Part shown: positions 1 through 15,068 of the stretch, one piece after another
How the letters are laid out: every line of letters begins with the position of its first letter
Position numbering within the stretch: the stretch's first letter is position 1
From: Deltaproteobacteria bacterium
Lineage (GTDB): Bacteria > Myxococcota_A > Polyangia > Polyangiales > Houyiibacteriaceae
Assembly: GCA_034670305.1 (NCBI GenBank)
Contig: JAXMNT010000090.1
Location: 1-15,068, forward strand
DNA length: 15,068 nucleotides
Direction of reading: 5' to 3'
The notes under the pieces: generated by a model
Database searches by the model: none
The model's input: only the letters and a program-made list of their open reading frames with translations
What the model was told of the DNA's origin: nothing
Made by a program: the position numbers and the translations under genes

Positions 1-38
1 CGATGCTCGTCGCGCTGATCAAGCGATCTGACCGCTGA
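1..38 (+). CDS. Truncated 3' end of a gene (...MLVALIKRSDR*), possibly a four-helix-bundle (23S rRNA intervening-sequence/bAvd-like) protein
   Basis: ATG CTC GTC GCG CTG ATC AAG CGA TCT GAC CGC TGA at 3-38. Amphipathic helix resembling the '(A/S)MLxxLI' C-terminus I recall for four-helix-bundle proteins; only about 12 residues visible. Confidence 0.4.
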   Translation, partial: MLVALIKRSDR

Positions 39-122
39 TCCGCGGGCAAGGGCAAAGGCAAGGGCAGGGGCAAGGGGCAGGCTGCGAGAACGCCCTGCGG
101 GCGTTCTTCAGCAACCTGCTAG
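1..122. repeat. Left copy of a perfect 122-bp inverted repeat (partner 14946-15067); probable end of a multicopy MITE/IS-like element
   Basis: Bases 1-122 match the reverse complement of 14946-15067 base for base; identity stops after CTAG (119-122). Contains a GGGCAA-type tract (44-80) and a palindrome (78-118). Confidence 0.95.
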
Positions 123-1240
123 ATCAGGATGGTGGGGCAGCCGAAGAGGATGTCGAGTGCGTCGGCCATGCGCGCGCGGTCGCACGCCGCTCCGAAGAGT
201 TCGATCTGCGTCATGTCGTCGGAGTAGTCCCAACCGCTCCCGCGCGCGGGGTCGCGTGGGATGGATTCGTCGCCGCCTTCGATCTGGATCCGCACGTTCA
301 CCTGACCGGGATCGAACGCACCGTCCGGGTTGTCGGGGATCTCGTAGACGCACTCGAGGACGGCTTCGCCGATCGCCGCGAACGCATCGCGGAGCGCGGC
401 GCCGAAGTCGAGGGCCGGGTCGGTGAGATCGTAGTGGCAGTAGGTCGGACCGCTGTCGCTGCACCCGGCCCGCGCGGTGCCCGCGGCGCTGGCGAGTCGA
501 GAGAGCACTGGCCGATAACCAGCGGAACCCGGCACCCCGATCACGAAGGTGGGCACACCGGCGGCCGCGGCGGCGCGCACCCGCTCCACCAGCGCGTCGT
601 TGTCGCGATCCTGTGCACTCGGGTCGTCGAACGCGCAGTCGGTGTCGCAGCCGAAGCAGACCCGCGCGTCGCCATCGGTCGCGAGCACGAGCGCTGGCCG
701 CTCCACGCCACTCAAGCGACCGACGCCGAACGCCACCGCATCGTGGGTGGGCGTCGAGAGACCGTCCGGCACGATCGACCGCGCGGCTGCCACCACGCCC
801 GCGCGCCCATCGCTCAACCGGGTGAAGTCGGAGACGAACTCGTCGCGGGCACAGGCGCCCTCCGCGCGCGGAAAACGCATCAGTCCCACCGAGGACGCAT
901 CGCTGAACGAACCCACCGCGTCGACGAGCGCCGACACGAAGACATCCCAGCGAGAGTCGTCGGGCGCGGGCGTCGGGTCGTCGGTCAAACAACCGAAGTC
1001 GTCCGCGCGGCAGTTCATGCTGTTGCTCGTGTCCATCTGGAAGAGCACCGTTGGCGGCAGCGGCTCGGCCACCGCGCTCACCGTTTCACACACCTCGCCC
1101 GGCACATCGAGCCGCACCACGTCGCGGAACGGTGCATCGATTGCAGACGAATCTGCGGCAGCCCCATCCACCGACGCGTCGATCCGTCGAACGTCCGAAG
1201 CACACCCCACCAAGAGCCCCAACACCAGCCAACGCGCCAT
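119..1240 (-). CDS. von Willebrand factor A (vWA) domain lipoprotein, myxobacterial Cys-rich type
   Basis: ATG at 1240; signal peptide with lipobox MARWLVLGLLVG-C; MIDAS DTSNS after hydrophobic strand TVLFQM; TPT and VLATDG motifs; Cys-rich C-terminus GWDY...IELFGAAC...FGCPT. TAG stop lies in the CTAG at 119-122. Confidence 0.88.
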   Translation of the reverse strand: MARWLVLGLLVGCASDVRRIDASVDGAAADSSAIDAPFRDVVRLDVPGEVCETVSAVAEPLPPTVLFQMDTSNSMNCRADDFGCLTDDPTPAPDDSRWDVFVSALVDAVGSFSDASSVGLMRFPRAEGACARDEFVSDFTRLSDGRAGVVAAARSIVPDGLSTPTHDAVAFGVGRLSGVERPALVLATDGDARVCFGCDTDCAFDDPSAQDRDNDALVERVRAAAAAGVPTFVIGVPGSAGYRPVLSRLASAAGTARAGCSDSGPTYCHYDLTDPALDFGAALRDAFAAIGEAVLECVYEIPDNPDGAFDPGQVNVRIQIEGGDESIPRDPARGSGWDYSDDMTQIELFGAACDRARMADALDILFGCPTILI

Positions 1241-1247
1241 GCCGCGC

Positions 1248-1253
1248 AGCATA
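1248..1253 (-). promoter_or_regulatory. Putative -10 box (TATGCT) of a leaderless transcript for the vWA gene
   Basis: TAnnnT 7 nt upstream of ATG 1240; no Shine-Dalgarno. Confidence 0.55.
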
Positions 1254-1279
1254 CCGCCTGACCCATTCGTGGCCGCCCG

Positions 1280-1398
1280 AGGGCCGCCAGTCGAGCGAAG
1301 CGAGCCAGGCCCGCAGCGAACAAACATTCGACGCGGCGAAGCCGAGCGAAGCGAGCAAGCCGTGTCACCAGGACGGGGTTTGGGGGCCGTGCCCCCAA
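1280..1398. repeat. REP-like intergenic palindromic element
   Basis: 34-nt unit at 1280-1313 is 32/34 identical to 2419-2452; GCGAAGC mini-hairpins at 1295 and 1346, CGGC-GAA-GCCG at 1334-1344, perfect TTGGGGGC-CGT-GCCCCCAA hairpin at 1380-1398. Confidence 0.7.
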
Positions 1399-1475
1399 GA
1401 ATACTGTGTGAATGATCACTGAACAGACGTGTCGTTTACTGGACCTGCGCGCAGCACTGACCGAAAGTACAGGGC

Positions 1476-1715
1476 ATGACGCAAACCACTCATGAATACG
1501 TTGTTTTTGGTGTCCTGGATCTTCTGCTCGCGGACGAACCGCCCAGTGTCCCGGCCCTGGCGCTGCGACTCGGCATCGATCGCGATACGGTCGAGTCGAA
1601 GCTCGCGCACCTCGAAGGCAAAGGCCTCGTGGCGTCGGGTCGCCTCACGATGTCTGGGCTCGCCGCCGCCAGCTCCCTTCGGGCCGCCCGCCAGTTCGCC
1701 AGCTGCGCCGCCTGA
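1476..1715 (+). CDS. Small winged helix-turn-helix DNA-binding protein (79 aa)
   Basis: SVPALALRLGIDRDTVESKLAHLEGKGLV...RLTMSG fits a wHTH (MarR/DtxR-like) pattern; fills the gap between flanking genes. Confidence 0.7.
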   Translation: MTQTTHEYVVFGVLDLLLADEPPSVPALALRLGIDRDTVESKLAHLEGKGLVASGRLTMSGLAAASSLRAARQFASCAA

Positions 1716-1752
1716 AGGTTCCGGATCGGCGGGAAGCGATCCCGCGCGAGTT

Positions 1753-1761
1753 TGTTATGGT
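1753..1761 (+). promoter_or_regulatory. Putative extended -10 box (TGtTATGGT) of a leaderless transcript for the PPIase gene
   Basis: TGn-TAnnnT 6 nt upstream of ATG 1768; no Shine-Dalgarno. Confidence 0.55.
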
Positions 1762-1767
1762 CCGCGC

Positions 1768-2349
1768 ATGCGACCCTCGATCTGGATTCTCAGTGCGATG
1801 TTGAGCTTCGGCACCCAGCTCGGCTGTGGTGGAGAAGACGCCGATTCATCGGAAGAAAGCGCCGAATCCGAAGACGAGTCCACCGAGTCGGAGACCGAGT
1901 CGGAAGACGGGTCGGAGACCGAGTCGGAGACCGAAGAAGAAGCCGAAGAAGAAGTCGACGACGACGAACTCGCGATCGACGTCGAGGAACACACGCTTGA
2001 CGAAGAGACCCGAGAAGCGGGCGCGGCCGAGACCCGCGGCATCGCCCACATCCTCGTGCGTTACCGCGGTGGGGACCGAACCCCCGCGTCGGTCACCCGC
2101 ACCGAAGCCCAGGCAGAGACGCGGGCCAACGAAGCGCTCGGCCGGATCGAAGCGGGCGAGACGTTCGCCGAAGTGGCGGCGGACCTGAGCGACGACGAAG
2201 CCAACCGCGAAAGCGGCGGTGCGATGGGTTCGCTCGAACGCGGCCTCTTGCCCAGCGCGCTGGATGCCGCCCTGTTCTCGATGGAAGTCGGCGAGACCCA
2301 GGTCGTCCAGACCAACCTCGGCTACCACGTCGTCCGCCGAACGCAGTAG
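1768..2349 (+). CDS. Parvulin/PpiC-type peptidyl-prolyl isomerase lipoprotein with acidic linker
   Basis: ATG at 1768; signal peptide ending QLG-C; Ser/Glu-rich linker; rotamase motifs AHILVRY, GETFAEVAADLSDD, GGAMG, VQTNLGYHVVRR. Confidence 0.9.
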   Translation: MRPSIWILSAMLSFGTQLGCGGEDADSSEESAESEDESTESETESEDGSETESETEEEAEEEVDDDELAIDVEEHTLDEETREAGAAETRGIAHILVRYRGGDRTPASVTRTEAQAETRANEALGRIEAGETFAEVAADLSDDEANRESGGAMGSLERGLLPSALDAALFSMEVGETQVVQTNLGYHVVRRTQ

Positions 2350-2400
2350 CGACGCGCGCTTCTTCAGTGGAGCAACCGAAGGGCGGCGAGCACGTGAAGG

Positions 2401-2457
2401 CGCGACGGGCGCGTGCATAGGGCCGCCAGTCTCGCGAAGCGAGCCAGGCCCGTCGTG
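2401..2457. repeat. REP-like stem-loop between convergent genes (second copy of the 34-nt unit)
   Basis: Outer stem CGCGACGGGC / GCCCGTCGTG; inner CTCGC-GAA-GCGAG (2431-2443); 2419-2452 matches 1280-1313 at 32/34. Confidence 0.7.
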
Positions 2458-2458
2458 T

Positions 2459-3604
2459 TCAAAGGAAGACCCCGTCGCCGTGACGGGCGACTTGGGTGCG
2501 GACGTGTTCGAGGATGGCTTGCCGGCGAAACTCGATGCCCTCCCAATGGCGCTCGTCGGTCAACGGCGGTCCCAACGGATCGGAGGCCATGCGCGCGCGC
2601 AGCCGATCCAGATCGAGCGCTTCCAGCGACTCGATCGTGGAGCGGCGGAACTTCTGGATGGCGTGAAGTCGGGACTCGGCGAGCCCGAGCATCAGCTCTC
2701 CCTCCCAGAAGCCGGCGCCGTTGTCCAAGTAGATGAGGGGCCCGCCGCGGCCGCGGCGACGCACGTTCGTGTAGTCGCCGCCCCAGCGGTCGACGTTGTG
2801 GATGAGGGTGTCGAAGACGATCAGATCGGAGGCTTCGGCCAGCTCTTCGAGTGAGAGTTCGGCGGCTGGGGGCTCGCGTCCGAGTGCGGTGTCCTCAGGC
2901 AGGCGGATGCCGTTGACCACATCGCGCCAATCGCGGGGCGGTTGGAAGGGCGAATGGGCGGGGTGGGCGAGCAGGTCGACGCGGCCGAAGCGCAGCTGTC
3001 GTTCGAAGCCCGGCCCAATGCGCCACCGCACGAGTCGCTGCGGCACCCAGCCGATGAACGCCCCCGCAACCCAACCTTCGTCGTCGACCTCGAGGCCTTC
3101 GAGTCGTGGATCCTCCGGCGCGGCGCGCTCGAGTGCCCGAAGTGGAAAACGTCGCCCAACGGTCGGCGGGACCCGGTCGAGTCCGAGCTCACGATCGATG
3201 TGGTAAGCGGCCACCTCGGAGTACCAGCGCGCGCCGGCAAACGCCTGCGCAGGTTTGAAGTAGCCTGCGGTGCCGTTGACCAACGTGACCTTGAAACCGA
3301 GGCTTCTGCCACCGGAGCCACGCTCCATGCGACCCCAACCGGCTTCGGCGAGAGAGCGGCGCCATGCCGAATCGTCGGAGCCGAGAAAGGTCGAGTCGAA
3401 CTCGGCCTGCACATCCACTTCGAGGTCCAGCTCGACGACATCAACTTCGACTTCGGCCGGACCCGCATCGGCACCGGCGTCGGCGCCCGCATCCACGGCC
3501 TCGTTCAGGGAAGCCGTGTGTCCGGTGCTCGGCGAATCACAGCCGATCAGGCCAGACGCCGCGATGCCTGCGAGGCACAGCGCTTGAACAAACGACCAGT
3601 GCAC
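2459..3604 (-). CDS. Fam20C/Four-jointed-like atypical protein kinase, predicted lipoprotein
   Basis: Motifs GSGGRSLGFKV...YFKP, SEVAAYHIDRELGLDRVPPTVGR, DLIVFDTLIHNVDRW, LIYLDNGAGF; hydrophobic stretch ending LIG-C. Start uncertain (GTG 3604 or TTG 3622; frame open to 3673). Confidence 0.8.
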   Translation of the reverse strand: MHWSFVQALCLAGIAASGLIGCDSPSTGHTASLNEAVDAGADAGADAGPAEVEVDVVELDLEVDVQAEFDSTFLGSDDSAWRRSLAEAGWGRMERGSGGRSLGFKVTLVNGTAGYFKPAQAFAGARWYSEVAAYHIDRELGLDRVPPTVGRRFPLRALERAAPEDPRLEGLEVDDEGWVAGAFIGWVPQRLVRWRIGPGFERQLRFGRVDLLAHPAHSPFQPPRDWRDVVNGIRLPEDTALGREPPAAELSLEELAEASDLIVFDTLIHNVDRWGGDYTNVRRRGRGGPLIYLDNGAGFWEGELMLGLAESRLHAIQKFRRSTIESLEALDLDRLRARMASDPLGPPLTDERHWEGIEFRRQAILEHVRTQVARHGDGVFL

Positions 3605-3787
3605 CGCGCAAACGCTGCGCAACTCCAGGGACTCTGGGCGGTTCGATGCGGTTTGGGGACAGGTGTGCATCAAAAGGGATCATCCGTTGTACGGACGGAT
3701 GTATCCAGAAAGCGACATGGATCGTCCCAGCTACGATCCGTGGTTCTACGGGCCGCGACTCCGGCAAGAATGGAGTAGCTTGGTGGG

Positions 3788-4768
3788 GTGAGCGTGCGTG
3801 TCGTTCTGGGGGCTGTGGCCCTGGCCATGGTCTGTGCCGGAGCGGCCGCCCAGCCCGTGGAGCAACCGGAGATCCCGACGACCGTTCCGGCGGCCACCAC
3901 CTGGGGACTGGTGCTCGCAGCCGACGAGTGCCTGACGCCGCGGCTGCGAGAGGCGGTCGATCAGTGGGCACCGGAGGCGGCCGACGCGTCGGTGAGCGTG
4001 GTGGTCGAACACGTCGACGGGGCGATCGAGTTCGCGGTCCTTCGGAGTGGCCACGACGTGGGTCGCCGACGCTTCGACCGGCTGCCCCAAGGGTGTGCCG
4101 ATCGGGTGGCGGCGCTGAGTCTGGCCATCGCCATCGCGCTGGATGGCCGGGTGCTGGAGCGAATCACTGGAGAACCCGCGCCTCCGGCTCGCATCGACTC
4201 GGGTCCCGAAGAACCCGAGCCGGTCCCCGAACCGTCCGACCCGACGCCGCCCGACTTCGGTGTGTCGTTCGCGGTCAGTGCCGGTGCGTCCGCCGGTGCC
4301 CTGCCCTCGTGGGTGGGGACCGGCCGTTTCGCGTTTCGGTTCGACTGGCGGGCGCTCTCGGTCGAGCTCGGCGGCATCGGCACCCTCCTGTCCAAGACCA
4401 ACCTCGGCACCGGCATGCTCGACACCCGACTCTTCGCCGGTTCGCTCGATGTGTGTCTGGCCCGCGCGCATCGACGCACGAAGCTGCTCGGCTGCGTGGG
4501 CGCCAGCTTGGGCCGCGTCATGGGAGCAGGCCGCGGGTTCGGGACCTCGCTCGGGACGACGCTGTGGTGGGGATCGGTCGATCCGAGTCTTTCGATCGCG
4601 TGGCCGATCGACTCACCGGTGCGGCTGCGAACCGGGGTGCGCGGACACGTCAAGACCATGCGGCCCGAGTGGCGCGTGGTCGATTCGAACGGTGCCACCC
4701 AGGCCTACGCCACCCCGTCCCTCGTGGGACTCGACGTCTCGGTGGGCGTGGAGTTCGTGTTGTGGTGA
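3788..4768 (+). CDS. Secreted hypothetical protein with Pro-rich linker and C-terminal beta-strand-rich (possible outer-membrane barrel) domain
   Basis: Signal peptide ending AAA-Q; small Cys-containing N-domain; PEEPEPVPEPSDP linker; alternating hydrophobic strands ending VSVGVEFVLW; directly upstream of the ECF sigma. Confidence 0.75.
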   Translation: MSVRVVLGAVALAMVCAGAAAQPVEQPEIPTTVPAATTWGLVLAADECLTPRLREAVDQWAPEAADASVSVVVEHVDGAIEFAVLRSGHDVGRRRFDRLPQGCADRVAALSLAIAIALDGRVLERITGEPAPPARIDSGPEEPEPVPEPSDPTPPDFGVSFAVSAGASAGALPSWVGTGRFAFRFDWRALSVELGGIGTLLSKTNLGTGMLDTRLFAGSLDVCLARAHRRTKLLGCVGASLGRVMGAGRGFGTSLGTTLWWGSVDPSLSIAWPIDSPVRLRTGVRGHVKTMRPEWRVVDSNGATQAYATPSLVGLDVSVGVEFVLW

Positions 4769-4807
4769 AGGATCCCCAGTCCCCCGGCATGAAGACGTAG
4801 AAGGCCG

Positions 4808-5335
4808 TTGGCTTCCACCATCAGCGCAGAGGAGCTCTTCCATGCACATGCCGGCTTTGCCGCATCGTTTTTGCACCGTCTTGGCGTGCCGAACCGCGAT
4901 GTACCGGACCTCGTGCAGGAGGTCTTCTTGCTCGCCCATCAGAAGGGCGGCTTCGTCGACGACGGCCGCGCCAAGTCGCGCACGTGGATCGCTGCGATCA
5001 CCGTCCGCCTCGCGTCCGGCTACCGGCGCAAGCGCAAAGAAGAACTCTCCGATGTGGAACCCGGCATGACCACCCGCACCCCCGAAGTCGAAGTCTCGAC
5101 CCGCCGCAGCCTAGAGCGGCTCACCCAGTGTCTCGATGGACTGGACCTGGAACACCGCAGCGTGTTCGTGCTCTTCGAGGTGGAAGGCATGCGCTCGGCG
5201 GAGATCGCCGAGACCCTCGGGGTGCCCGTCGGCACCGTCTACTCGCGGTTGCACCACGCCCGCGCCCGAGTGCGCGAAGCGTACGTGGCACTCGGCCGCG
5301 GGACGAAGCCGATCGCCGAAGGAGGCGGGTCATGA
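4808..5335 (+). CDS. ECF-family sigma-70 RNA polymerase sigma factor
   Basis: Region 2 DLVQEVFL...RTWIAAIT; region 4 RSVFVLFEVEGMRSAEIAETLGVPVGTVYSRLHHAR; TTG start approximate. Confidence 0.93.
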   Translation: MASTISAEELFHAHAGFAASFLHRLGVPNRDVPDLVQEVFLLAHQKGGFVDDGRAKSRTWIAAITVRLASGYRRKRKEELSDVEPGMTTRTPEVEVSTRRSLERLTQCLDGLDLEHRSVFVLFEVEGMRSAEIAETLGVPVGTVYSRLHHARARVREAYVALGRGTKPIAEGGGS

Positions 5336-6054
5336 ACGAACCGAAACCCTGGCTCGAGGATCCTTCGGGCCTGCCGCCCGGCCTCGCCGAAGACCTGCAG
5401 GCCATGCGCGAGTTTCCGGTGCCGTACGACGCGGCGGCTGGACTCGAGCAGCTTCAGTCCACCACCGGGGCGACTGGTGGTGCGGCTGGCTTGGGCGCCG
5501 CCAAGGGGATCCTCCTGCTGGTCGTCGTCGTGGGGGTCGGCGGGCTGATCGCGCTGTCTGCGCGGCCATGGACCGAACCGAGCGCTGAGACGGCGACCGA
5601 GCACGAGCCCTCGGCCGAGGTGGAAGTCGAGACCGCAGCACCCGCGACCGACGAAGTCGAAGCGGCCGACGAAGTCGAAGCGGCAGTCCCGACCACCGAG
5701 CCTGGCGAGCCCGCCGAGCAGCCGGAGACGACCGAGACGACCGAGAACACCGAAGCCCGGACCGCGGTGGAAACGGTCCAGAATCCCGCGACGGCCAGCC
5801 CCGAGGACGAGATTCGGCATCTTGCAGCGCTGCGAAGCCTCTCGCATTCGAACCCGGACCGCGCGGTTCGGGAAGCCAATCGTGGGGACGCACGCTTCGA
5901 GGGCGGCCTCTTCGCTGAAGAGCGCGCGGCGATTCGGGTGTTCGCCCTGGAACGTTCGGGTCGGCACGCCGCCGCCGTGCGCGCTGGCCGCCGTTTCCTT
6001 CGACGCTACCCAAGCAGTCCGCAACGAACCCAGATCCAGGAGCTCGTCCAATGA
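5332..6054 (+). CDS. Putative anti-sigma factor: single TM helix, acidic linker, C-terminal TPR-like helical domain
   Basis: ATGA overlap with the sigma stop and GAAGGAGG Shine-Dalgarno; TM GILLLVVVVGVGGLIAL; C-terminal EERAAIRVFALERSGR...ARRF-type helices ending RYPSSP. Confidence 0.8.
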   Translation: MNEPKPWLEDPSGLPPGLAEDLQAMREFPVPYDAAAGLEQLQSTTGATGGAAGLGAAKGILLLVVVVGVGGLIALSARPWTEPSAETATEHEPSAEVEVETAAPATDEVEAADEVEAAVPTTEPGEPAEQPETTETTENTEARTAVETVQNPATASPEDEIRHLAALRSLSHSNPDRAVREANRGDARFEGGLFAEERAAIRVFALERSGRHAAAVRAGRRFLRRYPSSPQRTQIQELVQ

Positions 6055-8060
6055 CTCGTCTTCGACTTCAACACACCCTCTCTTTGTTCGTCGGCTGCCT
6101 GGCCTTGGCGTGCGGCGACTCCGGCGTCGTGGGCGTGGATGGGGATGCGGATGTGGCCGATGCGAACGCGCCGGACGGCTTGTCCACGGACTCGAGCCTC
6201 CCCGGGCTGATCTCACTGCGCGTCGAACCGGCGCTCGTCGAGATCGCCGACGATGGGTTCGCGCCAGGGGAGACGGCGGCCGTCCGGGCCATCGGCACCT
6301 TCGACGACGGGGAACGCGACCTCACGGCGTTGGTGTTCTGGACGGTCGAACGGGAAGCGCTCGCGACGCTGGACTCCGGCCTCGTGACCAGCCAGGGCAT
6401 CGGCGGCCGAGGCGTGATCACCGCGCAAGCGGGGGAGGCGACGGCGAGCGCCGACCTGCACATCCGAGTGGAAGTCGCAGTGCCTGGCGACGTCGATCCA
6501 GAGGTCCGCGCGCTCTTTCCGGAGGACACCTCGGGCGACGTGGTCGGCGTCGAAGACGCACCGCTGATCGTCTACCCGAGCGACGAGACCCAGTTCCCGC
6601 GCAACCTCGAGCGGGTCGACCATCAGTGGCGCGCCGAAGGACTCGACGTGTTCGAGGTGCGTTTCGAGAGTGAGCTCGGCCTCATCCGATACTTCACGAG
6701 CGACCTGCACCTGCTGCCCGACGCCGCCGGCTGGCGTTGGATCGCGGACACGCACGCGGGGGCATCCCTCGAGTTGAGCGTGCGCGGCATCGACTCCGAA
6801 GATCCCTCTCGGGTGCTGCGTTCGGACGCGGTGACGCTCTACTACTCGGAGTCGGAGGTGCGGGGCGCACTCTACTACTGGTCGACCGGCGCCCAGGGCG
6901 TGATGCGGGCGACGATCGCCTCGACCCTCGCCACCAAGTTCTACTCTGGACCGGAAGACAACACCTGCGTCGCCTGCCACACCGTGTCGCGCAACGGTCG
7001 CCGAATGTCGATGGGCTACGGCGGCGAGCAGTTGAGGCAGGTCTCCGTCCCCGAAGCAGAACTGCAGATCCCAAGCGACCCGGATGGGCGGGGGCGCGAC
7101 TACGGCTGGGGCACCTACAACCCGGAGGCGACCCGCCTGCTCTTCTCCGCCGACGGTGAGTTCACCATGCTCGACGCTGAGAGCGGAGACGAACTCGAGG
7201 CGCCGGGCCTTCCGGAAGACTGGACCGTCACCCATCCCGACTGGAGTCCAGACGGAGCGTACATCGCGTTCGCCTACCACGATTCGGAGTCGCTGGGAGA
7301 CAAGAGCGCCGAAGGCACCGGGCTCGCGCGCATCCCCGTGCGCGGCGATGGAACGTTCGGCACCGCCGAGGTCCTGCTCCCGAGCGAAGACGGGGAAGAC
7401 GACACGCTCTTCTTCCCCGCGTACTCGCCGGACGGCCGGTGGCTCGCGTTCGTGCGCGCCGAAGGCAAGTCGAAGGACGCCGAGTCGGCGACCGTCTTCC
7501 TGCTCGCCTCCGACGGCGCGGGCGCGCCCGTCGAGCTGATGCGCCTGAACGAACGGGTCCGGCACCAGGACGGCGTGGTGGACGTCGGCAACTCCATGCC
7601 TCGATGGGCGCCGAGCACCCAGCCCGGCACCTTCTGGCTCGTCTTCTCCTCCGTGCGTGCGTACGGCGACGTCATCCAAGACGGCGGCCGCGATCAGCTG
7701 TGGGGCGTCGCGATCGACCCGGCCGCCATCGGCGCGTCCGACCCGAGCTACGCGGCGTTCTGGATGCCGTTCCAGGAAGTGGAAGAGGGCAACCACCGCG
7801 CGTTCTGGACCATCGACACCGACGACGTGTGCGACGACGTCGTGGAGATCTGCGACGAGATCGACAACGACTGCGACGGCATCGTCGACGAAGAGTGTTG
7901 CGTGCCCGGCCCCGAGGTGTGCGGCGACATGGTCGACAACGACTGCGATGGACTCGCGGACGAAGGCTGTGGCTGCGAAGACACCGAGACGTGCGACAAT
8001 GGCATCGATGACGACTGCGATGGCGCGACGGACGGGGCGGACGAGGATTGTCTGATCTGA
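6051..8060 (+). CDS. Large lipoprotein: Ig-like domain, single CxxCH motif, TolB/PD40-like beta-propeller, C-terminal Cys/Asp (MopE-related) repeats
   Basis: ATGA overlap; lipobox LALA-C; CVACH at 6966-6980; HPDWSPDG and FPAYSPDGRWLAF repeats; three EICDxIDNDCDGxxDE-type repeats. Confidence 0.88.
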   Translation: MTRLRLQHTLSLFVGCLALACGDSGVVGVDGDADVADANAPDGLSTDSSLPGLISLRVEPALVEIADDGFAPGETAAVRAIGTFDDGERDLTALVFWTVEREALATLDSGLVTSQGIGGRGVITAQAGEATASADLHIRVEVAVPGDVDPEVRALFPEDTSGDVVGVEDAPLIVYPSDETQFPRNLERVDHQWRAEGLDVFEVRFESELGLIRYFTSDLHLLPDAAGWRWIADTHAGASLELSVRGIDSEDPSRVLRSDAVTLYYSESEVRGALYYWSTGAQGVMRATIASTLATKFYSGPEDNTCVACHTVSRNGRRMSMGYGGEQLRQVSVPEAELQIPSDPDGRGRDYGWGTYNPEATRLLFSADGEFTMLDAESGDELEAPGLPEDWTVTHPDWSPDGAYIAFAYHDSESLGDKSAEGTGLARIPVRGDGTFGTAEVLLPSEDGEDDTLFFPAYSPDGRWLAFVRAEGKSKDAESATVFLLASDGAGAPVELMRLNERVRHQDGVVDVGNSMPRWAPSTQPGTFWLVFSSVRAYGDVIQDGGRDQLWGVAIDPAAIGASDPSYAAFWMPFQEVEEGNHRAFWTIDTDDVCDDVVEICDEIDNDCDGIVDEECCVPGPEVCGDMVDNDCDGLADEGCGCEDTETCDNGIDDDCDGATDGADEDCLI

Positions 8061-9361: not shown

Positions 9362-9533
9362 GCCGGGCCCTTTGGGTTGAGGGCGAGGGCGAGGAGCCGA
9401 GTGCGGGGCTCCGCTCAGCTTTGTCTCGCTCCGAGACGAATCAGGGCGCCCCTGCGCCCGACCGCCCCGCCCACAGGACCACTGGCGAATGGGGGGTGGC
9501 TTGTCGGCCGCGCGACGGTAGCCTCCCGCGGCC

Positions 9534-11129
9534 ATGACCAGCGTCCAGACCACCAGCGGCTCGCCGAGCCACATCGACTGTTTCGAACCCGCGACCGGCG
9601 CGCCGCTCGGCCAGGTCCGCGTGACCACCCCCGAAGAGGTGCACCGCGCGATCGACAAAGCCCGGGAAGCCCAAGCGCTCTGGGCCCGCACCACGTTCGA
9701 TGTGCGGCGCTCGGTCCTGCGACAGATCCAGCGCCACGTGCTCGACCACGCGGACGAGCTCTGCGATCTCATCGTTCGGGACGCGGGCAAGACCCGTGAG
9801 AACGCGATGCTCGGCGAGATCTGGCCGGTCTCCGAAAAGATCCGCTGGACGATCCGGCACGGCGAGAAGCACTTGCGGCCCGAGCGGGTCTCGAGCGGGC
9901 TCTTCGTACACAAGAAGGCCACCATCGAATACCACCCGCGCGGCGTGGTCGGCGTCATCTGCCCGTGGAACTACCCGCTGCAAAACATCCTCGGACCGGT
10001 GGTCCCGGCGCTGATGGCCGGCAACGCGTGCGTCGTGAAGGTCAGCGAGCAGGTGGCCTTCAGCGCCGCGCGCTTCGAACGGATCTTCCACGAAGCCTTC
10101 GACCAGCACGGCTTCCCGCACGCGCTCGTCCAGATCGTGCACGGCTACGCGGAGACCGGCGCGGCGGTGGTCAGCGGCGGCAGCGATCTCGTGGTCTTCA
10201 CTGGCTCGATGGCCAACGGCAAGAAGGTCATCGCCGAGAGCGCGAAGTCGATTACGCCGGTCATCCTCGAGCTCGGGGGCAAAGACGCGATGATCGTGTG
10301 CGACGACGCCGACCTCGAGCAAGCCGCCCACGCGGCCCTCGCTGGCAGCTTCATCGCGGCGGGACAGAACTGCCTCGCCGCGGAACGCACCCTCGTGCAC
10401 GCGGGCATCTACGACGCGTTCGTCGCCCGGGTCGCGCACCTCGCGGGACAGATGACGCAAGGCGTGCCGCACGAAGGCCGGCCGGATGTCGGCGCGCTCG
10501 TCGCCGCGCAGCAGGCCGACATCGTCGAACACCTCGTCAACGACGCGCTCGCCAAGGGTGCGCGCGCGCTCGTCGGTGGCGCCCGACCGAAGCGCGCGGG
10601 CAACTGGTTCGAACCCACCGTGCTGGTCGATTGCACGCCCGAGATGTTGATCATGCACGAAGAGACCTTCGGTCCCGTGATGGCCATCTGCCGCGTGCGC
10701 TCCGACGAAGAAGCGATCGAGATCGCCAACGGCACCCAGTACGGGCTCAGCTCCACGGTGCTCAGCAAGGACAAGAAGCGCGCGAAGCGCATCGCCGACG
10801 CGATCGTCACCGGCAGCGCGTCGATCAACGACTACGGCCTGACGTACATGGCGCAGGAGCTGCCCTTCGGCGGGGTCGGCGGATCCGGGTTCGGCCGACT
10901 CAACGGGCGCGAAGGATTGCGTGCGTGCACGAACGTGAAGTCGGTCCTCGAGGATCGCATCGCGCTGCACCAGCCCGCCAAGCTCTTTCCCGTCGGCCCG
11001 CGCGACTACGATGTGGCCCGCGGCGTGATCAAGACGCTCTACGGCCAAGGCGTGCGCGGACGGATCGAAGGTCTGAAGGACCTCGTGCGCACCGCACGCG
11101 GCGTGGTACGTCCCCGCCGCCGTGACTGA
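9534..11129 (+). CDS. NAD(P)-dependent aldehyde dehydrogenase
   Basis: GVICPWNYP, ALMAGNACVVKVSE, FTGS, LELGGKD (catalytic Glu), GQNC (catalytic Cys), EETFGPV, LPFGG. Confidence 0.96.
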   Translation: MTSVQTTSGSPSHIDCFEPATGAPLGQVRVTTPEEVHRAIDKAREAQALWARTTFDVRRSVLRQIQRHVLDHADELCDLIVRDAGKTRENAMLGEIWPVSEKIRWTIRHGEKHLRPERVSSGLFVHKKATIEYHPRGVVGVICPWNYPLQNILGPVVPALMAGNACVVKVSEQVAFSAARFERIFHEAFDQHGFPHALVQIVHGYAETGAAVVSGGSDLVVFTGSMANGKKVIAESAKSITPVILELGGKDAMIVCDDADLEQAAHAALAGSFIAAGQNCLAAERTLVHAGIYDAFVARVAHLAGQMTQGVPHEGRPDVGALVAAQQADIVEHLVNDALAKGARALVGGARPKRAGNWFEPTVLVDCTPEMLIMHEETFGPVMAICRVRSDEEAIEIANGTQYGLSSTVLSKDKKRAKRIADAIVTGSASINDYGLTYMAQELPFGGVGGSGFGRLNGREGLRACTNVKSVLEDRIALHQPAKLFPVGPRDYDVARGVIKTLYGQGVRGRIEGLKDLVRTARGVVRPRRRD

Positions 11130-12744
11130 ACCAAGGACCCACACACCCGCCGACACCTTCGACTACGTCGTGGTCGGCGGCGGCAGCGCGGGCTGCATCC
11201 TCGCGGCCGATCTCTCGAAGGTCGGCACCGTCTGTCTGCTGGAAGCGGGACCGCACGCGAGCCAAGCCCCCGCAACGTTGCGCGCCGATGGCTACAAGGA
11301 CGCGTTCACCGATCCGCGCCTGATGTTCGAACGGTTCGCCAAGAAGGACGCGCGCTGGGGCGACCGGCGGGTCTTTGTGGGCACCGGCCGGGTGCTCGGC
11401 GGCAGCGGTGCTGTGAACGCGATGGTCTACACGCGCGGCGCGGCGGAAGACTTCGACAGCTGGCCCGAAGGCTGGCGTTGGCAAGACGTGCAGCCTGCGT
11501 TCGATGCGGTGGAATCCACGCTGAGGCCGCGGCCACGCGAACTGACCGAATGGACCGAACGCTGCATCGCGTCGGCCGAGCTCGCAGGCATGCGCCGCAG
11601 CCGCAACCTCAACGACGGCGACCTGAGCGGCGTGCTCGGCTACGAGGCGATGAACTACGAAGGCGACGCGCGGCGCTCTTCCTACGTCGGGTTCTTGGCC
11701 CCCGCGCTCGAAGCCCAGATCACGGCGCCCGAAGCGAAGCGCACCCTCCAAGTCGAGACCGGCGCGCTCGTCGATCGCGTCGTGGTGCGCGGCGGCCGAG
11801 CGCGCGGCGTCGCGTACTTCAAGGGCACGACCGAACACGAAGTGTTCGCGCGCCGCGAGGTCGTGCTCTGCGGTGGCGCGCTCGCGACGCCTGCCATCCT
11901 TCAACGCTCCGGCATCGGCGCGGCGAGCGCGCTCCAAGCGCTCGGCATCGACGTCGTACTCGACCAGCCACGCGTCGGCGCGAACCTGCACGACCACCCG
12001 AACGTACAGCTCTTCTTCCGTGGCAAACGCGAGGTCGACTGCGACTACCCGCAGCTCTACGGCTTCGAACACGTGGGCGCTGGTTCCGAGTCCGCACCCG
12101 ACACCTGCTTCGTCTTCTACCCGGCCCGCTCCTCCTTCCGAGAGGGCCTGTTGAAGTTGCTCCCGGGCATCGCGCTGCCCGAGTCGCTCTACGACAACCC
12201 GGTGTTCCCCGCCGCGATCCGCAAGTCGATCGAAGTCGCGTTCGAGCGCGACGCGGTGCGTTCGTTCGTGGAGAAGCTCTGGGGCGTGGTCGTGATCCTC
12301 GGCAAACCGAAGAGCCGCGGCAGCGTGCAGATCACGAGCCGCGATCCGCACGCGATGCCGGACGTGGACCCCGGCTGGTTCGCCGATCCCGCCGACATGG
12401 ACACCGTGCTCGCTGGCGTCGAACGCGCGCGCGACATCGCCGGCCAAGCGCCGCTCGGGTTCTTCGGACAGAAGGAACTCTTGCCCGGCAAACGCGTGAA
12501 ACGCCGCGCCGCGCTCGAGCGGTGGGTCCGCAAGAACGTGATGACGACCTACCACTTCGCTGGCTCGTGCGCCTTCGGCACCCAGGACGACGATGTGCTC
12601 GACCTCGATCTGCGCTTGCGGGGCATCGAGGGCCTTCGAGTCGCCGACGCGAGCGCGATGCCCATCGCGCCGGTCGCCGCGCTCAACGCGCCCACGATGA
12701 TGCTCGCCTACCGCGCCGCCCAGCGCATCGCCGCGGACGCGTAG
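11122..12744 (+). CDS. GMC family FAD-dependent oxidoreductase (choline/alcohol dehydrogenase-like)
   Basis: DYVVVGGGSAG, GRVLGGSGAVNAMVYTRG, ILQRSGIG, VGANLHDH, TTYHFAGSC, LRVADASAMP, NAPT; GTG start overlaps the ALDH end by 8 nt. Confidence 0.95.
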   Translation: MTEPRTHTPADTFDYVVVGGGSAGCILAADLSKVGTVCLLEAGPHASQAPATLRADGYKDAFTDPRLMFERFAKKDARWGDRRVFVGTGRVLGGSGAVNAMVYTRGAAEDFDSWPEGWRWQDVQPAFDAVESTLRPRPRELTEWTERCIASAELAGMRRSRNLNDGDLSGVLGYEAMNYEGDARRSSYVGFLAPALEAQITAPEAKRTLQVETGALVDRVVVRGGRARGVAYFKGTTEHEVFARREVVLCGGALATPAILQRSGIGAASALQALGIDVVLDQPRVGANLHDHPNVQLFFRGKREVDCDYPQLYGFEHVGAGSESAPDTCFVFYPARSSFREGLLKLLPGIALPESLYDNPVFPAAIRKSIEVAFERDAVRSFVEKLWGVVVILGKPKSRGSVQITSRDPHAMPDVDPGWFADPADMDTVLAGVERARDIAGQAPLGFFGQKELLPGKRVKRRAALERWVRKNVMTTYHFAGSCAFGTQDDDVLDLDLRLRGIEGLRVADASAMPIAPVAALNAPTMMLAYRAAQRIAADA

Positions 12745-12748
12745 CCTG

Positions 12749-12948
12749 CTTGCCAGCGCCGAAGGCGCAATCCCCTTGCCCTCGGTGGGGCTTTGCTCGC
12801 TAGGGAGTGTCTTCAAAGGGTCGGGCCGTAGGCCCGGCCTTCGTGCACGTACACGTACACGCACACGTGCACGTACCCGTGTGCGTCCTCGTCCCCTTGC
12901 CAGCGCCAAAGGCGCGATGCCCTTGCCCCGACCCTTGCCTCGGTGGGG
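12749..12948. repeat. Composite intergenic repeat: two direct repeats flanking CTAG, an IS-like end, a hairpin and a hexamer tract
   Basis: CTTGCCAGCGCCGAAGGCGCAATCCCCTTGCCC (12749) vs CTTGCCAGCGCCAAAGGCGCGATGCCCTTGCCC (12896), 30/33 identical, both followed by TCGGTGGGG; CTAG 12800-12803; hairpin 12819-12839; GTGCAC/GTACAC hexamers 12843-12896. Confidence 0.8.
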
Positions 12949-13020
12949 TTGGTTCCCGACATCCGCGCTGTCCCCGAGACCCATCGGACGCGGTGCCTAC
13001 GCAAGGGCGTCGATTCGGAG

Positions 13021-13029
13021 TGCTACGCT
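13021..13029 (+). promoter_or_regulatory. Putative extended -10 box (TGcTACGCT) of a leaderless transcript
   Basis: TGn-TAnnnT 6 nt upstream of ATG 13036; no Shine-Dalgarno. Confidence 0.55.
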
Positions 13030-13035
13030 GGCCGC

Positions 13036-14949
13036 ATGCGCGCTCTTCTTCTCTTCGGTCTGTCTGTCTCTCTGATCGCCTGCGGAGACGACGACTCTGC
13101 CGGAGGCGACGACGCTGGCGGAGGCGAAGACTCGGGCGCCGTCCTCTGCCGCGCCGACGTGGACTGCTCCGACGCGGTCTACTGCAACGGAGTCGAAGTC
13201 TGCGCGCCATCTGCCGCGGGCGCGGACGAGCGCGGCTGCGTGAACCCCGGCGCGCCCTGCACCGAACCGGGCCGCAGCTGCGACGAGCTCGGTCGACGCT
13301 GTTTCACCGAATGCGAAGTCTCCGGCGATGCCGACGGAGACGGAGTGGACTCCGAAGACTGCGGCGGAGGCGATTGCGACGACGGCAACCCGAACCGCTT
13401 CCCAGGCAACGAAGAGGTCTGTGACGAGGCGGGGCTCGACGAGGACTGCGACCCGCGCACGCTCGGCGGTGTGGACGACGACGGCGACGGACACATCGCC
13501 TCCATGTGCTGCAACGGAGAGGTCTGCGGTACCGACTGCGACGACATGAGCGCTGGCACGTTCGTCGGCGCGATCGAAGTCTGCAACGGCCTCGACGACG
13601 ACTGCGACGGCACAATCGACGAAGGCCTTCCGGTAGAGGCCTACCTGCCCGATTGCGACCGCGACAACTTCGGCGCCGACGACGGCGAAGCGGTCATGGG
13701 TTGCTCCGTTCCAGGCGATCCACCAGCGTGTGATCTCGGGGTGTGGGTGGTCGGCACCGGGGACTGCAACGACGGCGACGCCAACATCAACCCAGGCAAC
13801 CCCGAGGTCTGCAACAACGTCGACGACAACTGCGACGACACCGTGGACAACATGGGCGCGGGTGGGGCCTTCGTCTGCGAAGCCGGCGAGGAGATGGCCT
13901 GCACGAACGGTTGCGGCGTCTCCGGCAGAACGCTCTGCATGGGATGCACCGCGTTCGCCGAGTGCACTTCGGACGAGATCTGCAACCACTGCGACGACGA
14001 CAACGACGGCAACTTCAACGAAGAGCGCGAGCTCTCGACGGGGACCGACGCGCCCATCTTGTTCTGCGGGACGCAGGCGGGCGTGGGCGACTGCAGCCCG
14101 GTTTCGGGGGGTTCGGATTCGATGTTGTTCGTCGCGACCGTGCTGGACGGCACGAGCAACGACAGCGCCGGAGCCGTCTGGCTCAACCTCGTGGATGTGG
14201 CTGGCATGGCGGTGGACCCGGCGATGGGCTGGGGAACGATCGAGTTCGACGTCGTGCTCGAAGCGACCGCGGTTCCAAATGGCGAGACCGACGCGGAGTC
14301 TCCGCTCGGCGGGTGGGCAGTGGTGTTCGCGCGGGAAGGCGGCGAGGGGGTCGGGACACCCGAAGATCGGGGCGTTCCACGCGACCTCGTTGGCGGATCG
14401 GTGAACTGGTACTGGTCCTACCTGTACATGGACTCTCCGCCCGGCACCTTCGACCAGACCCGCTACCACTCCCACCGTGGCGTGGGCGGCGGCACGCCCA
14501 TCCGGGCCGATGGAACCGGTCCGAACTGGAACCTCGACGATGGAGAGTTGCTCGCGGGCGGCTCCACCGGGTTCGATGGGCAGACGACAGCAGTCGCCCA
14601 ACACCTTCGCATTCGCTACACACCGGACGATCCGATCACGATCGCGAACGAAGAACGCGTCGAGGTCACCGCTTCCACGGACGGGGGCAACAGGGTCTCT
14701 GTGTATGCCGCCGCGATGCCAGACGGTTCGCCAGACCCGGCCAACGACCTCCCGGTGGGCGCCCCCCTCGTCATCGGATTCACCGCGGGCACGTACACGG
14801 ATTCTGGGTTCACCGGGCCGCCGCCTGGGTTCACCTTCGGCGTACCCGTTCGTGCAACCGTCGAACTGAGCCGAATCCGGACCGACGTCAGTCCTGTGGA
14901 GTACAGCTCGGCCAACGCCTCCCTCACCCGCGGCGGCATCTGCCCCTAG
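13036..14949 (+). CDS. Cys/Asp-repeat (MopE-related putative metal-binding motif) lipoprotein with possible C-terminal L-type lectin-like domain
   Basis: ATG at 13036; lipobox LIA-C; repeated DCDD...PG.xEVC...DxDCD motifs; C-terminal SAGAVW...IEFDV...GGWAVVF pattern reminiscent of L-type lectins. TAG stop lies in the CTAG at 14946-14949. Confidence 0.85.
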   Translation: MRALLLFGLSVSLIACGDDDSAGGDDAGGGEDSGAVLCRADVDCSDAVYCNGVEVCAPSAAGADERGCVNPGAPCTEPGRSCDELGRRCFTECEVSGDADGDGVDSEDCGGGDCDDGNPNRFPGNEEVCDEAGLDEDCDPRTLGGVDDDGDGHIASMCCNGEVCGTDCDDMSAGTFVGAIEVCNGLDDDCDGTIDEGLPVEAYLPDCDRDNFGADDGEAVMGCSVPGDPPACDLGVWVVGTGDCNDGDANINPGNPEVCNNVDDNCDDTVDNMGAGGAFVCEAGEEMACTNGCGVSGRTLCMGCTAFAECTSDEICNHCDDDNDGNFNEERELSTGTDAPILFCGTQAGVGDCSPVSGGSDSMLFVATVLDGTSNDSAGAVWLNLVDVAGMAVDPAMGWGTIEFDVVLEATAVPNGETDAESPLGGWAVVFAREGGEGVGTPEDRGVPRDLVGGSVNWYWSYLYMDSPPGTFDQTRYHSHRGVGGGTPIRADGTGPNWNLDDGELLAGGSTGFDGQTTAVAQHLRIRYTPDDPITIANEERVEVTASTDGGNRVSVYAAAMPDGSPDPANDLPVGAPLVIGFTAGTYTDSGFTGPPPGFTFGVPVRATVELSRIRTDVSPVEYSSANASLTRGGICP

Positions 14950-15067
14950 CAGGTTGCTGAAGAACGCCCGCAGGGCGTTCTCGCAGCCTGCCCCTTGCCC
15001 CTGCCCTTGCCTTTGCCCTTGCCCGCGGATCAGCGGTCAGATCGCTTGATCAGCGCGACGAGCATCG
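14946..15067. repeat. Right copy of the perfect 122-bp inverted repeat (partner 1-122)
   Basis: CTAG, then CAGGTTGCTGAAGAACGCCC-GCA-GGGCGTTCTCGCAGCCTG (14950-14990), then CCCTTG hexamers (14988-15024); exact reverse complement of 1-122. Confidence 0.95.
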
Positions 15068-15068
15068 C
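15030..15068 (-). CDS. Truncated 3' end of a gene (...AMLVALIKRSDR*), identical copy of the stub at 1-38
   Basis: Reverse strand reads GCG ATG CTC GTC GCG CTG ATC AAG CGA TCT GAC CGC TGA. Confidence 0.4.
   Translation of the reverse strand, partial: AMLVALIKRSDR

Follow-up and report, generated by a model that had tools for sequence, protein, structure and literature searches.

A perfect inverted repeat at both ends of a myxobacterial contig begins at the stop codons of two lipoprotein genes

Genes of the contig and the edges of the inverted repeat

The window, by which we mean the whole stretch of DNA analysed here, is an entire contig of 15068 nt, since its own proteins P0003 and P0085 belong to a contig of exactly that length. 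Its genes are ordinary chromosomal ones and encode, among others, a vWA lipoprotein, a PPIase, a Fam20-like kinase, an ECF sigma factor with its anti-sigma factor, an aldehyde dehydrogenase and a GMC oxidoreductase. Protein family searches found no transposase within the window, as the earlier note had already remarked from its reading of the sequence. No phage or plasmid function was found there either; a PHROGs search of 11 proteins returned 4 matches, all weak or generic. Three of these were to families whose function is unknown and one was to a sigma factor; polymerase, capsid, packaging and partition proteins were absent. The window contains no tRNA and no Rfam family at the gathering threshold, and the right-hand end (14900-15068) gave no Rfam match at E values up to 10. 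A search of 1230-1500 gave a single sub-threshold chance match to Rfam. Small intergenic repeats occur elsewhere in the window too: 1280-1313 and 2419-2452 are a 94% match, and the copy at 2415-2458 folds into a modest hairpin while that at 1276-1320 does not.

The two ends of the contig are inverted copies of one another. The earlier note had described a perfect 122-bp inverted repeat, and a repeat search across the whole window bears this out: the arms are 100% reverse-complementary over 122 nt, without a mismatch, and the runner-up inverted pair spans just 42 nt at 76% (Table 1). A 20-nt gene-proximal probe with up to 3 mismatches matches the window twice, once in each arm, where shuffled sequences (n = 200) give an expectation of 0.00. 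One extra base at the right end of the contig lies outside the paired arm, the left end being one base shorter, so the repeat is 123 nt long at one end and 122 nt at the other. As the window spans the contig from end to end, each arm simply runs out where the contig does.

The inner limits are more informative. The identity of the arms ends on both sides at the tetranucleotide CTAG, and the adjacent inward base differs between left and right. CTAG is scarce in the window: its 15068 nt hold 4 sites where shuffles give 9.84 +/- 3.05, and the two junctions account for 2 of the 4. Each junction contains the TAG stop codon of the adjacent lipoprotein gene, and the repeat has the same end towards each gene, so that the earlier claims of a repeat starting at the TAG of two unrelated, unbroken genes, in the same orientation to each, both stand. 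That the genes are unbroken is seen in C-terminal alignments, which show native ends. The homologues of the vWA protein are named VWA and carry PF00092/PF13519; all 22 aligned sequences (the window protein and 21 homologues) share the final column, and FGCPT and the lipobox cysteine C42 are invariant. The Cys-repeat protein carries PF11617 in three stretches, and the lipobox cysteine C47 is invariant in its family; 11 of 18 aligned sequences (the window protein and 10 of 17 homologues) end exactly in CP, and the remaining 7 extend 1-3 residues beyond CP or differ. With the end of the repeat exactly on a native stop, the TAG is common to gene and repeat.

Table 1. Positions of the repeat, its parts and the adjoining genes in the window
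Feature	Position	Strand	Description
Left arm	1..122	- (outward from vWA gene)	reaches contig end; 100% complementary to 14946-15067
Right arm	14946..15068	+	14946-15067 paired, plus partnerless base 15068
CTAG, left inner boundary	119..122	.	holds TAG 121-119 (-), stop of vWA lipoprotein gene
CTAG, right inner boundary	14946..14949	.	holds TAG 14947-14949, stop of Cys-repeat (MopE-motif) lipoprotein gene
Imperfect palindrome, 43 nt	14949..14991; mirror 77-119	+	~19-20 pairs, 3-nt loop
Hexamer run, 5.5 copies	14992..15024; left arm 44-76	CCCTTG, +; GGGCAA, plus strand (left arm)	period 6, 85% matches, score 52
Distal part of repeat	15025..15068; mirror 1-43	+	weak hairpin only
vWA-family lipoprotein gene	119..1240	-	complete; 373 aa (P0003); ends at the family's native C-terminus
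Cys-repeat lipoprotein gene, MopE metal-binding motifs	13036..14949	+	complete; 637 aa (P0085); ends in family-typical CP

A hairpin beside the stop codon

From the gene outward, CTA comes first and is followed by a 43-nt palindrome; next come 5.5 hexamers (GGGCAA on the left arm's plus strand), and the remaining 43 nt form the distal part. Pairing in the palindrome begins at the G of the TAG stop codon. Folded as RNA, the palindrome reaches -32.3 kcal/mol (z -6.24), a value equalled by 0 of 200 shuffles, and as DNA it reaches -18.5 kcal/mol (z -5.55). It may thereby provide the gene with a stop-proximal hairpin, acting as a terminator or as a stabiliser of the 3' end. Folding of the distal part gave no significant hairpin (z -0.36 and -0.63). 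On its plus strand, read by eye, the left arm has a stop in all three frames by nt 38; a convergent gene could have its 3' end in these distal 38 nt.

Orthologous loci, a related copy and the length of the repeat

The repeat is absent from the corresponding place in related genomes. In all 22 orthologous vWA loci (L001-L022), the sequence 3' of the vWA stop is unrelated to it, and the stop itself is TGA in 16, TAA in 2 and TAG in 4, with 0 in a CTAG context. Searches of 27 loci (397,620 nt) with the 123 nt, by blastn, blastn-short and nhmmer, returned nothing but matches to the hexamer run, which fall within a Gly/Gln-rich coding region in L009 and L011 and in a spacer in L006. L012 has a 20-nt match in coding-looking DNA, without extension. 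With a threshold of 80 bits, no other gene of the window was found beside vWA in any of the 27 loci; weak paralogue-level matches near vWA in L003, L007 and L014 are the exceptions to this absence of synteny. A 28-nt probe from the tip had 0 matches among representative genome contigs, so close copies are absent there or differ in those 28 nt. Against a plasmid collection, the only blastn match of the 123 nt was 25 nt long and due to chance (E 0.3); against a phage collection there was none.

The sole related sequence that we found is P0206, recovered twice, by a full scan of 1.84 billion protein representatives and by a word-indexed search of longer proteins. The two sequences are identical at 32 of 35 residues and have equal numbers of hexamers, and the upstream flank of P0206 is different; as read from the translation, that copy appears to carry the palindrome as well. 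P0206 comprises 218 aa over 654 nt on a contig of 370,969 nt, has 0 Pfam families and no match in the plasmid collection by tblastn, and looks like a junk ORF across non-coding DNA. It extends 163 residues, or ~490 nt, past the point at which the window ends, and the repeat is therefore longer than 122 nt. The suggestion in the earlier note that the element exceeds 122 bp and that the contig is broken inside it was thus well founded, given this longer copy and a window that is the whole contig. P0206 also has two copies of a short motif that is found once in the vWA-PPIase spacer of the window.

The arms could also mark the edges of a large chromosomal block duplicated in inverted orientation, such as rRNA operons or some multi-kb duplication that gene conversion keeps identical, and the stop codons would then only show where homology ends. 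Large identical repeats often break contigs and are indeed the commonest cause of such breaks. The tail of P0206, by eye, has more A/T-type codons than the window, as in leaders or RNA genes, and 32 of 35 identical residues in a translated non-coding frame, against at most 62% for the best NCBI-sourced vWA homologues, fits strong conservation, though the P0206 genome may be a near one. However, the window has no tRNA and no Rfam family at the gathering threshold, no rRNA-like translation was seen by eye in P0206, and a duplicated block would not be expected to have its edge exactly at the stop codons, TAG included, of two unrelated genes; we consider such a block quite unlikely.

The length of the arms may reflect the assembler. 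A published assembly recipe, as given in the available part of its source, finishes at k=123 (PMC6126044), and we infer that arm lengths of 122 and 123 nt are k-1 and k of a run ending at that value. The assembler would have entered the repeat for k-1 or k bases and then stopped, which would make 122 nt a technical length and not that of the element. The same match of the arms to k-1 and k, exactly at the contig ends, might also be taken to mean that the two junctions were misjoined or belong to different strains, so that no single genome has both inverted copies, and the source does appear to be metagenomic, its relatives being MAGs. Yet a de Bruijn contig should by its construction contain read k-mers only, so both junctions should be present in the data, and the 14.8-kb interior is continuous from one to the other. 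A strain-specific junction would, moreover, normally branch and end the contig at the gene end, not 122 nt past it. An artefact or population mixture therefore seems to us very unlikely.

A size of 15 kb and a perfect terminal inverted repeat also match the signature used for calling complete linear genomes, and the contig could on that basis be taken for a linear replicon or virus that is complete and ends in inverted repeats of 122 nt. This reading is extremely improbable, because the gene content is that of a chromosome and lacks replication, terminal-protein or virion genes, because homologous sequence continues ~490 nt further inside a contig of 370,969 nt, and because the repeat has no match in the phage collection and only a chance match among plasmids.

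The nature of the repeat

The repeat is probably an ordinary dispersed or mobile one that stopped the assembler, and the 122 visible bases do not tell its type. The earlier note inferred a recently active, multicopy element, which it may be; two copies are seen here. One possibility is an autonomous DDE insertion sequence (IS5-, IS630- or IS701-like) present in two inverted copies, of which the arms would show the same end. It would target CTAG, or TA within CTAG, its transposase would lie just outside the contig, and the interior would have the geometry of a composite transposon. Other families also target CTAG. The identity of both arms terminates at CTAG, a tetranucleotide found in the target preferences of IS5 and IS630: in the available parts of the sources, IS5 duplicates a Py-T-A-Pu tetranucleotide that is most often CTAG (15 of the 24 cases listed in Table 3 of PMC5493358), and IS630 inserts at TA inside 5'-CTAG-3' (PMC2170065). 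Perfect identity over at least 122 nt with an assembly break is typical of IS copies; the identity itself suits an IS end and a small module equally. All plus-strand frames of the left arm close within nt 1-38; this leaves ~80 nt to the tip, a usual distance between a transposase stop and the end of an IS.

Other features fit an insertion sequence less well. The likeness to IS5 consists of CTAG at the junction, seen at one end of both copies, and an assignment to that family would be drawn from a target that is common to IS630. Unlike IS5, the visible tip is a long self-complementary palindrome, and the visible part has no transposase or recognisable terminal inverted repeat. With IS630/Tc1/mariner elements and the MITEs derived from them the repeat shares the TA-in-CTAG context at its visible end, and if TA were the duplicated target the element would start at the G of TAG, precisely where the palindrome starts. 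Some mariner-type ends open with a similar short word. Here too, the visible part differs from such elements in having no transposase or paired inverted repeat. The region of P0206, a 218-aa junk ORF over 654 nt without a family, argues against a strong gene beside that end of the element in the other genome. We consider an autonomous insertion sequence possible but on the unlikely side.

ERIC, Correia and similar elements of ~100-150 nt have strong secondary structure, lie in transcribed spacers near gene ends, affect termination or mRNA stability, and are defined by paired terminal inverted repeats. Our repeat resembles them in its strong secondary structure close to gene ends, a likeness of general description in which no sequence relation is expected. 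Integron attC and Tn7-like readings were dropped on general knowledge, since the two copies stand in inverted orientation beside unrelated genes and no core-site-like words were seen by eye.

RAYT tyrosine transposases presumably move REPs and their clusters (BIMEs/REPINs), and by analogy the closest described behaviour to that of our repeat is that of GTAG-tagged REPs. In the available text of PMC3733652, REPs lie mostly downstream of ORFs, the unit is a palindrome of 20-40 bp with a stem of 5-13 bp, and dimers have 20-100-bp spacers; GTAG REPs carry an unpaired terminal tetranucleotide, G first and variable at positions 2-3, and such tagged termini often give flanking ORFs their TAG stop. 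Our repeat likewise has a palindrome straight after a tetranucleotide ending in TAG, its two copies both adjoin the 3' ends of complete genes, and in both the TAG is the stop of the flanking ORF. As in REP dimers, a spacer and a second, different stem-loop follow within ~100 nt, this second hairpin being here not significant. Unlike GTAG REPs as that text describes them, the tag is CTAG, with C first and its G paired, and the palindrome is longer (43 nt, with a stem of ~19-20 bp); the identical unit, at least 123 nt here, differs as well. That text gives no REP family for Myxococcota, the terms Myxococc, Sorangium and deltaproteobacteria having 0 occurrences in it, and the literature seen to pair 'myxobacteria' with 'repetitive extragenic palindromic' was on an unrelated topic.

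A preference for CTAG would not by itself account for the stop codons. In a crude count on related DNA, CTAG coincided with the stop of a GC3-supported ORF at 18 of 213 sites, with an ORF set whose TAG usage (179 of 425 stops) shows that it includes spurious ORFs; two hits on stop codons are thus not expected from CTAG targeting alone. The idea of a compositional funnel, in which CTAG in GC-rich DNA occurs mostly at stops, was not borne out by this crude test. The coincidence (n=2) could be partly due to chance and selection.

We favour, at about an even chance, the reading that the arms belong to a dispersed and probably mobile repeat, present in two inverted copies, with its TAG-bearing end on native stops. 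The contig, from an uncultured Polyangiales/Sandaracinaceae-like myxobacterium, would then be 14.8 kb of unique chromosomal sequence lying between two such copies. We think that the arms more likely belong to a structured, largely non-coding element than to one end of a complete insertion sequence; this element would be a tagged-palindrome module, REP/BIME- or MITE-like, moved in trans and inserting at a TA, TAG or CTAG target so as to leave or supply the stop. As it stands, the case is that of an ordinary unresolved repeat at contig ends, and this repeat explains where the present contig, and probably many others of the same assembly, ends. Homologous recombination between the two perfect inverted copies could invert the interior, and the 14.8-kb segment is thereby flagged as potentially invertible.

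A bolder reading, which we hold only tentatively and think doubtful, is that a structured, non-coding mobile module of Polyangiales docks specifically on TAG stops and brings a 20-bp hairpin with it, supplying both stop and terminator. Such a module would be the equivalent of a GTAG REP with a CTAG tag and a long stem, would belong to a phylum for which the literature available to us describes none, and the tagged-palindrome class of small mobile repeats would then reach Myxococcota. The ~90% identity of the repeat between genomes whose orthologues are perhaps ~60% identical would in that case mean horizontal spread or strong constraint. It would be a concrete case of a repeat that gives host genes both their stop codon and their 3' hairpin, and would bear on how very GC-rich genomes, in which TA-containing targets are scarce, may host mobile DNA without losing genes.

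The inverted repeat and its two junctions

The two ends of the window carry one sequence in opposite orientations. A repeat search recovers the perfect 122-nt inverted repeat described in the earlier note, the runner-up inverted pair in the window being 42 nt long and 76% identical, and a 20-nt probe from the arm's inner end finds only these two sites at ≤3 mismatches (expected 0.00). Reading of both ends bears out that identity stops at CTAG, with a different adjacent base on the inward side, and that each CTAG holds the TAG stop of a lipoprotein gene, one of the vWA family and the other with Cys repeats (MopE motif). CTAG is scarce in the window, with 4 sites where shuffled sequences have 9.84 ± 3.05, and the junctions account for two of the 4.

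C-terminal alignments indicate that the stops at which the repeat begins are native ones and that neither gene is truncated. The vWA protein and 21 homologues (52-70% identical) share the same last column in 22/22 sequences, with FGCPT invariant. When the Cys-repeat protein is aligned with 17 homologues, 11 of the 18 sequences (query included) stop exactly at ..CP, and the other seven are one to three residues longer or have a different ending.

The interior products are the vWA-family lipoprotein, a PPIase, a Fam20-like kinase, one uncharacterised protein, an ECF sigma factor and its likely anti-sigma factor, a PD40/MopE protein, a LamG protein, an aldehyde dehydrogenase, a GMC oxidoreductase and the MopE-motif lipoprotein. 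No match to a family of transposases, integrases, replication or virion proteins occurs among these 11 products; PHROGs returned four matches, generic or of no known function, and NCBIfam nothing for the seven searched. That the contig is a linear replicon, with the arms as its ends, seems to us scarcely credible. The Fam20-like protein (404 aa) weakly matches the C-terminal domain of the eukaryotic Golgi casein kinase Fam20C (E 4e-07), which is unusual for a bacterial protein.

Coordinates of the features discussed, in the window unless a locus is named
Feature	Position	Strand	Remark
Arms of the inverted repeat	1-122; 14946-15067		reverse complements
CTAG junctions	119-122; 14946-14949
TAG stop, vWA gene	121-119	minus
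TAG stop, Cys-repeat gene	14947-14949	plus
Imperfect palindrome, following CTA	14949-14991; mirror copy 77-119		43 nt
Hexamer run	44-76; 14992-15024		5.5 copies
Fam20-like gene	2459-3673	minus
34-nt intergenic repeat	1280-1313; 2419-2452		94% identical
Partial third copy of 34-nt repeat	1340-1359
G5/C5 hairpin motif	1363-1407		vWA-PPIase spacer
Spacer before Cys-repeat gene	12745-12942
33-nt direct repeat	12749-12781; 12896-12928		91%
A/T-richer hexamer	12842-12880		6.5 copies
L003, duplicated vWA 3' end	4600-4760		tandem
L018, repeats after vWA gene	2566-2650		15-nt unit
L006, C-rich hexamer run	5420-5600		spacer
L009, C-rich hexamer run	6320-6470		coding, other strand
L011, C-rich hexamer run	6770-6870		coding, other strand

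Length and anatomy of the repeat

P0003 and P0085, two of the window's own proteins, are catalogued on a contig of 15068 nt, as long as the window itself. The window is therefore the entire contig, and each arm runs out at a contig end; the repeat measures 122 nt at one end and 123 at the other, where base 15068 is included. A de Bruijn assembler that runs from a unique segment into one repeat node on either side, in opposite orientations, stops with k-1 nucleotides of that node on one side and k on the other. A passage of PMC6126044 describes one published assembly recipe, MEGAHIT with a k list up to 123. As k-1 = 122 and k = 123 match the arm lengths, we regard the 122 nt as probably set by the assembly and not as the length of the repeat itself.

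The earlier note's expectation of a longer repeat is upheld by a related copy in another genome. The 39-aa frame that is open outward served as query against 1.84 billion representative proteins, and the outward frame with its stop read as X as query against the longer proteins of a 5.8-billion-cluster collection. Both searches returned one match, the 218-aa NCBI-sourced protein P0206 from a 370,969-nt contig (E 6e-11 and 2e-10). By tblastn, 32/35 residues are identical to the window from the palindrome to its last base, with an equal number of hexamers, and P0206 extends 163 residues (about 490 nt) beyond the window-end match, so the related sequence does not stop at the contig end. Its first 17 residues have no tblastn match beside the window's junctions, which places that copy in a different context, and residues 18-27 are the translation of the opposite palindrome arm in the window. 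That translation suggests that the palindrome at P0206 may be perfect, the window copies having a mismatch and a 2-nt bulge. A Pfam search of P0206 found no family, and its composition is junk-like, rich in Arg, Ser and Pro; P0206 appears to be a spurious ORF across an extended tract of DNA that is non-coding or oddly coding.

Outward from either gene, the repeat consists of CTA, the palindrome, the hexamer run and a final 43-44 nt that fold weakly (z -0.36 and -0.63). The palindrome has ~19-20 pairs and a 3-nt loop, with the G of the stop codon as its first paired base, and folds strongly as RNA (-32.3 kcal/mol, z -6.24, 0/200 shuffles as good) and as DNA (-18.5 kcal/mol, z -5.55). No T run follows it, and a simple terminator scan of the window does not list it. 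Rfam has no family in the window at the gathering threshold and none in 14900-15068 at E up to 10, and a tRNA search of the window found none. In the left arm, stops on the plus strand close all three frames by nt 38, so a gene entering from outside would end there; in the outward direction one frame is open as far as the contig end.

The window's spacers hold other small repeats. The copy of the 34-nt repeat ~8 nt past the Fam20-like gene's stop forms a modest hairpin (z -1.7), and the copy in the vWA-PPIase spacer folds no better than shuffles (z +0.97). The G5/C5 hairpin motif occurs once in the window and twice in P0206 (12/15 and 17/28 residues in translation), so the two genomes share at least two spacer-repeat families; it does not occur in 27 other loci with a vWA-family gene. 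A direct repeat and a hexamer array occupy the spacer before the Cys-repeat gene.

Orthologous loci and the nature of the repeat

Those 27 loci (397,620 nt, from Polyangiales, Sandaracinaceae and related MAGs) came from a vWA-family profile search; 22 (L001-L022) are clear orthologues, and L023-L027, 29-35% identical, were omitted from the orthologue comparison. In the 22 loci the gene ends in ..FGCPTxxx or ..YGCPTxxxx, the DNA after the stop is lineage-specific and unrelated to the repeat, and the stops are TGA in 16, TAA in 2 and TAG in 4, none in a CTAG context. With the 123 nt as query, blastn-short and nhmmer gave hexamer-run matches in the full set of 27 loci and one 20-nt match that does not extend, and otherwise none. 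The orthologous loci are empty sites in a loose sense only, since these relatives are distant (≤63% protein identity). Gene order around the vWA gene is not conserved among the 27 loci, and the comparison covers the vWA junction.

Odd repeats stand at the vWA-family stop in three lineages, those of the window, L003 and L018. In L003 the 3' end of the gene is duplicated in tandem together with its stop and ~40 nt beyond (TAA in copy 1, TGA in copy 2), followed by C-rich hexamer runs able to pair with a G-rich run; in L018, ~five tandem repeats of the last four codons and TAA lie immediately 3' of the gene. C-rich hexamer runs resembling the repeat's also occur in a spacer of L006, there followed by a 12-nt tandem array, and in L009 and L011 within a Gly/Gln-rich coding stretch.

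One sequence with two different right-hand neighbours means two copies. The contig runs without a break from one neighbour to the other, which makes the copies inverted and puts them 14.8 kb from each other in a single genome or dominant population. An assembly or strain artefact is in our judgement highly improbable. Duplication of a large block that includes the arms is improbable too, for it would not be expected to place its boundary on the stop codons, TAG included, of two unrelated intact genes. Target-specific insertion would produce that boundary. The earlier note's description of the repeat stands, and its interpretation, a recently active multicopy element that inserts at stop codons, is supported only in part. 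A passage of PMC5493358 gives the IS5 target as Py-T-A-Pu, mostly CTAG, and one of PMC2170065 gives that of IS630 as TA within CTAG. The junction is compatible with both, so CTAG alone assigns no family. That the arms are the end of an autonomous IS is rather unlikely. A structured non-autonomous repeat is favoured instead by the strong palindrome at the tip, starting inside the tag, by the lack of convincing coding sequence in the 123 nt, by the junk-like character of the related 654-nt stretch, and by the further small intergenic repeats in the window, one copy of which is a modest hairpin. We put a dispersed mobile repeat of a non-coding kind at about an even chance; it probably adds a new member to a kind of small or mobile repeats that is already known. 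In behaviour it comes nearest, among described repeats, to GTAG-tagged repetitive extragenic palindromes (REPs), whose ends often supply adjacent ORFs with their TAG stop (PMC3733652). This is a likeness in behaviour and not membership, since both the tag's first base and the size of stem and unit, two features that were tested, set the repeat apart from them.

Stop codons and consequences for the genes

The 27 loci together with the window yielded a crude set of 425 stop-to-stop ORFs (≥100 codons, GC3 ≥0.78); its TAG stops, 179 of 425, are too many, which shows that it contains spurious antisense ORFs. Only 18 of 213 CTAG sites fall at such a stop, 52 lying inside ORFs and 143 outside, contrary to the idea that CTAG in GC-rich DNA falls mostly at stops. 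Taken at face value, the counts from this crude set suggest that a preference for CTAG is not enough to make two hits at stop codons likely. Either the element recognises more than CTAG, or selection and chance (n = 2) have played a part.

Lying right after the stop, the palindrome should serve both genes as a hairpin terminator or a 3'-end stabiliser. Homologous recombination between perfect inverted copies can flip the DNA that lies between them, and the two arms could in this way invert their 14.8-kb interior.
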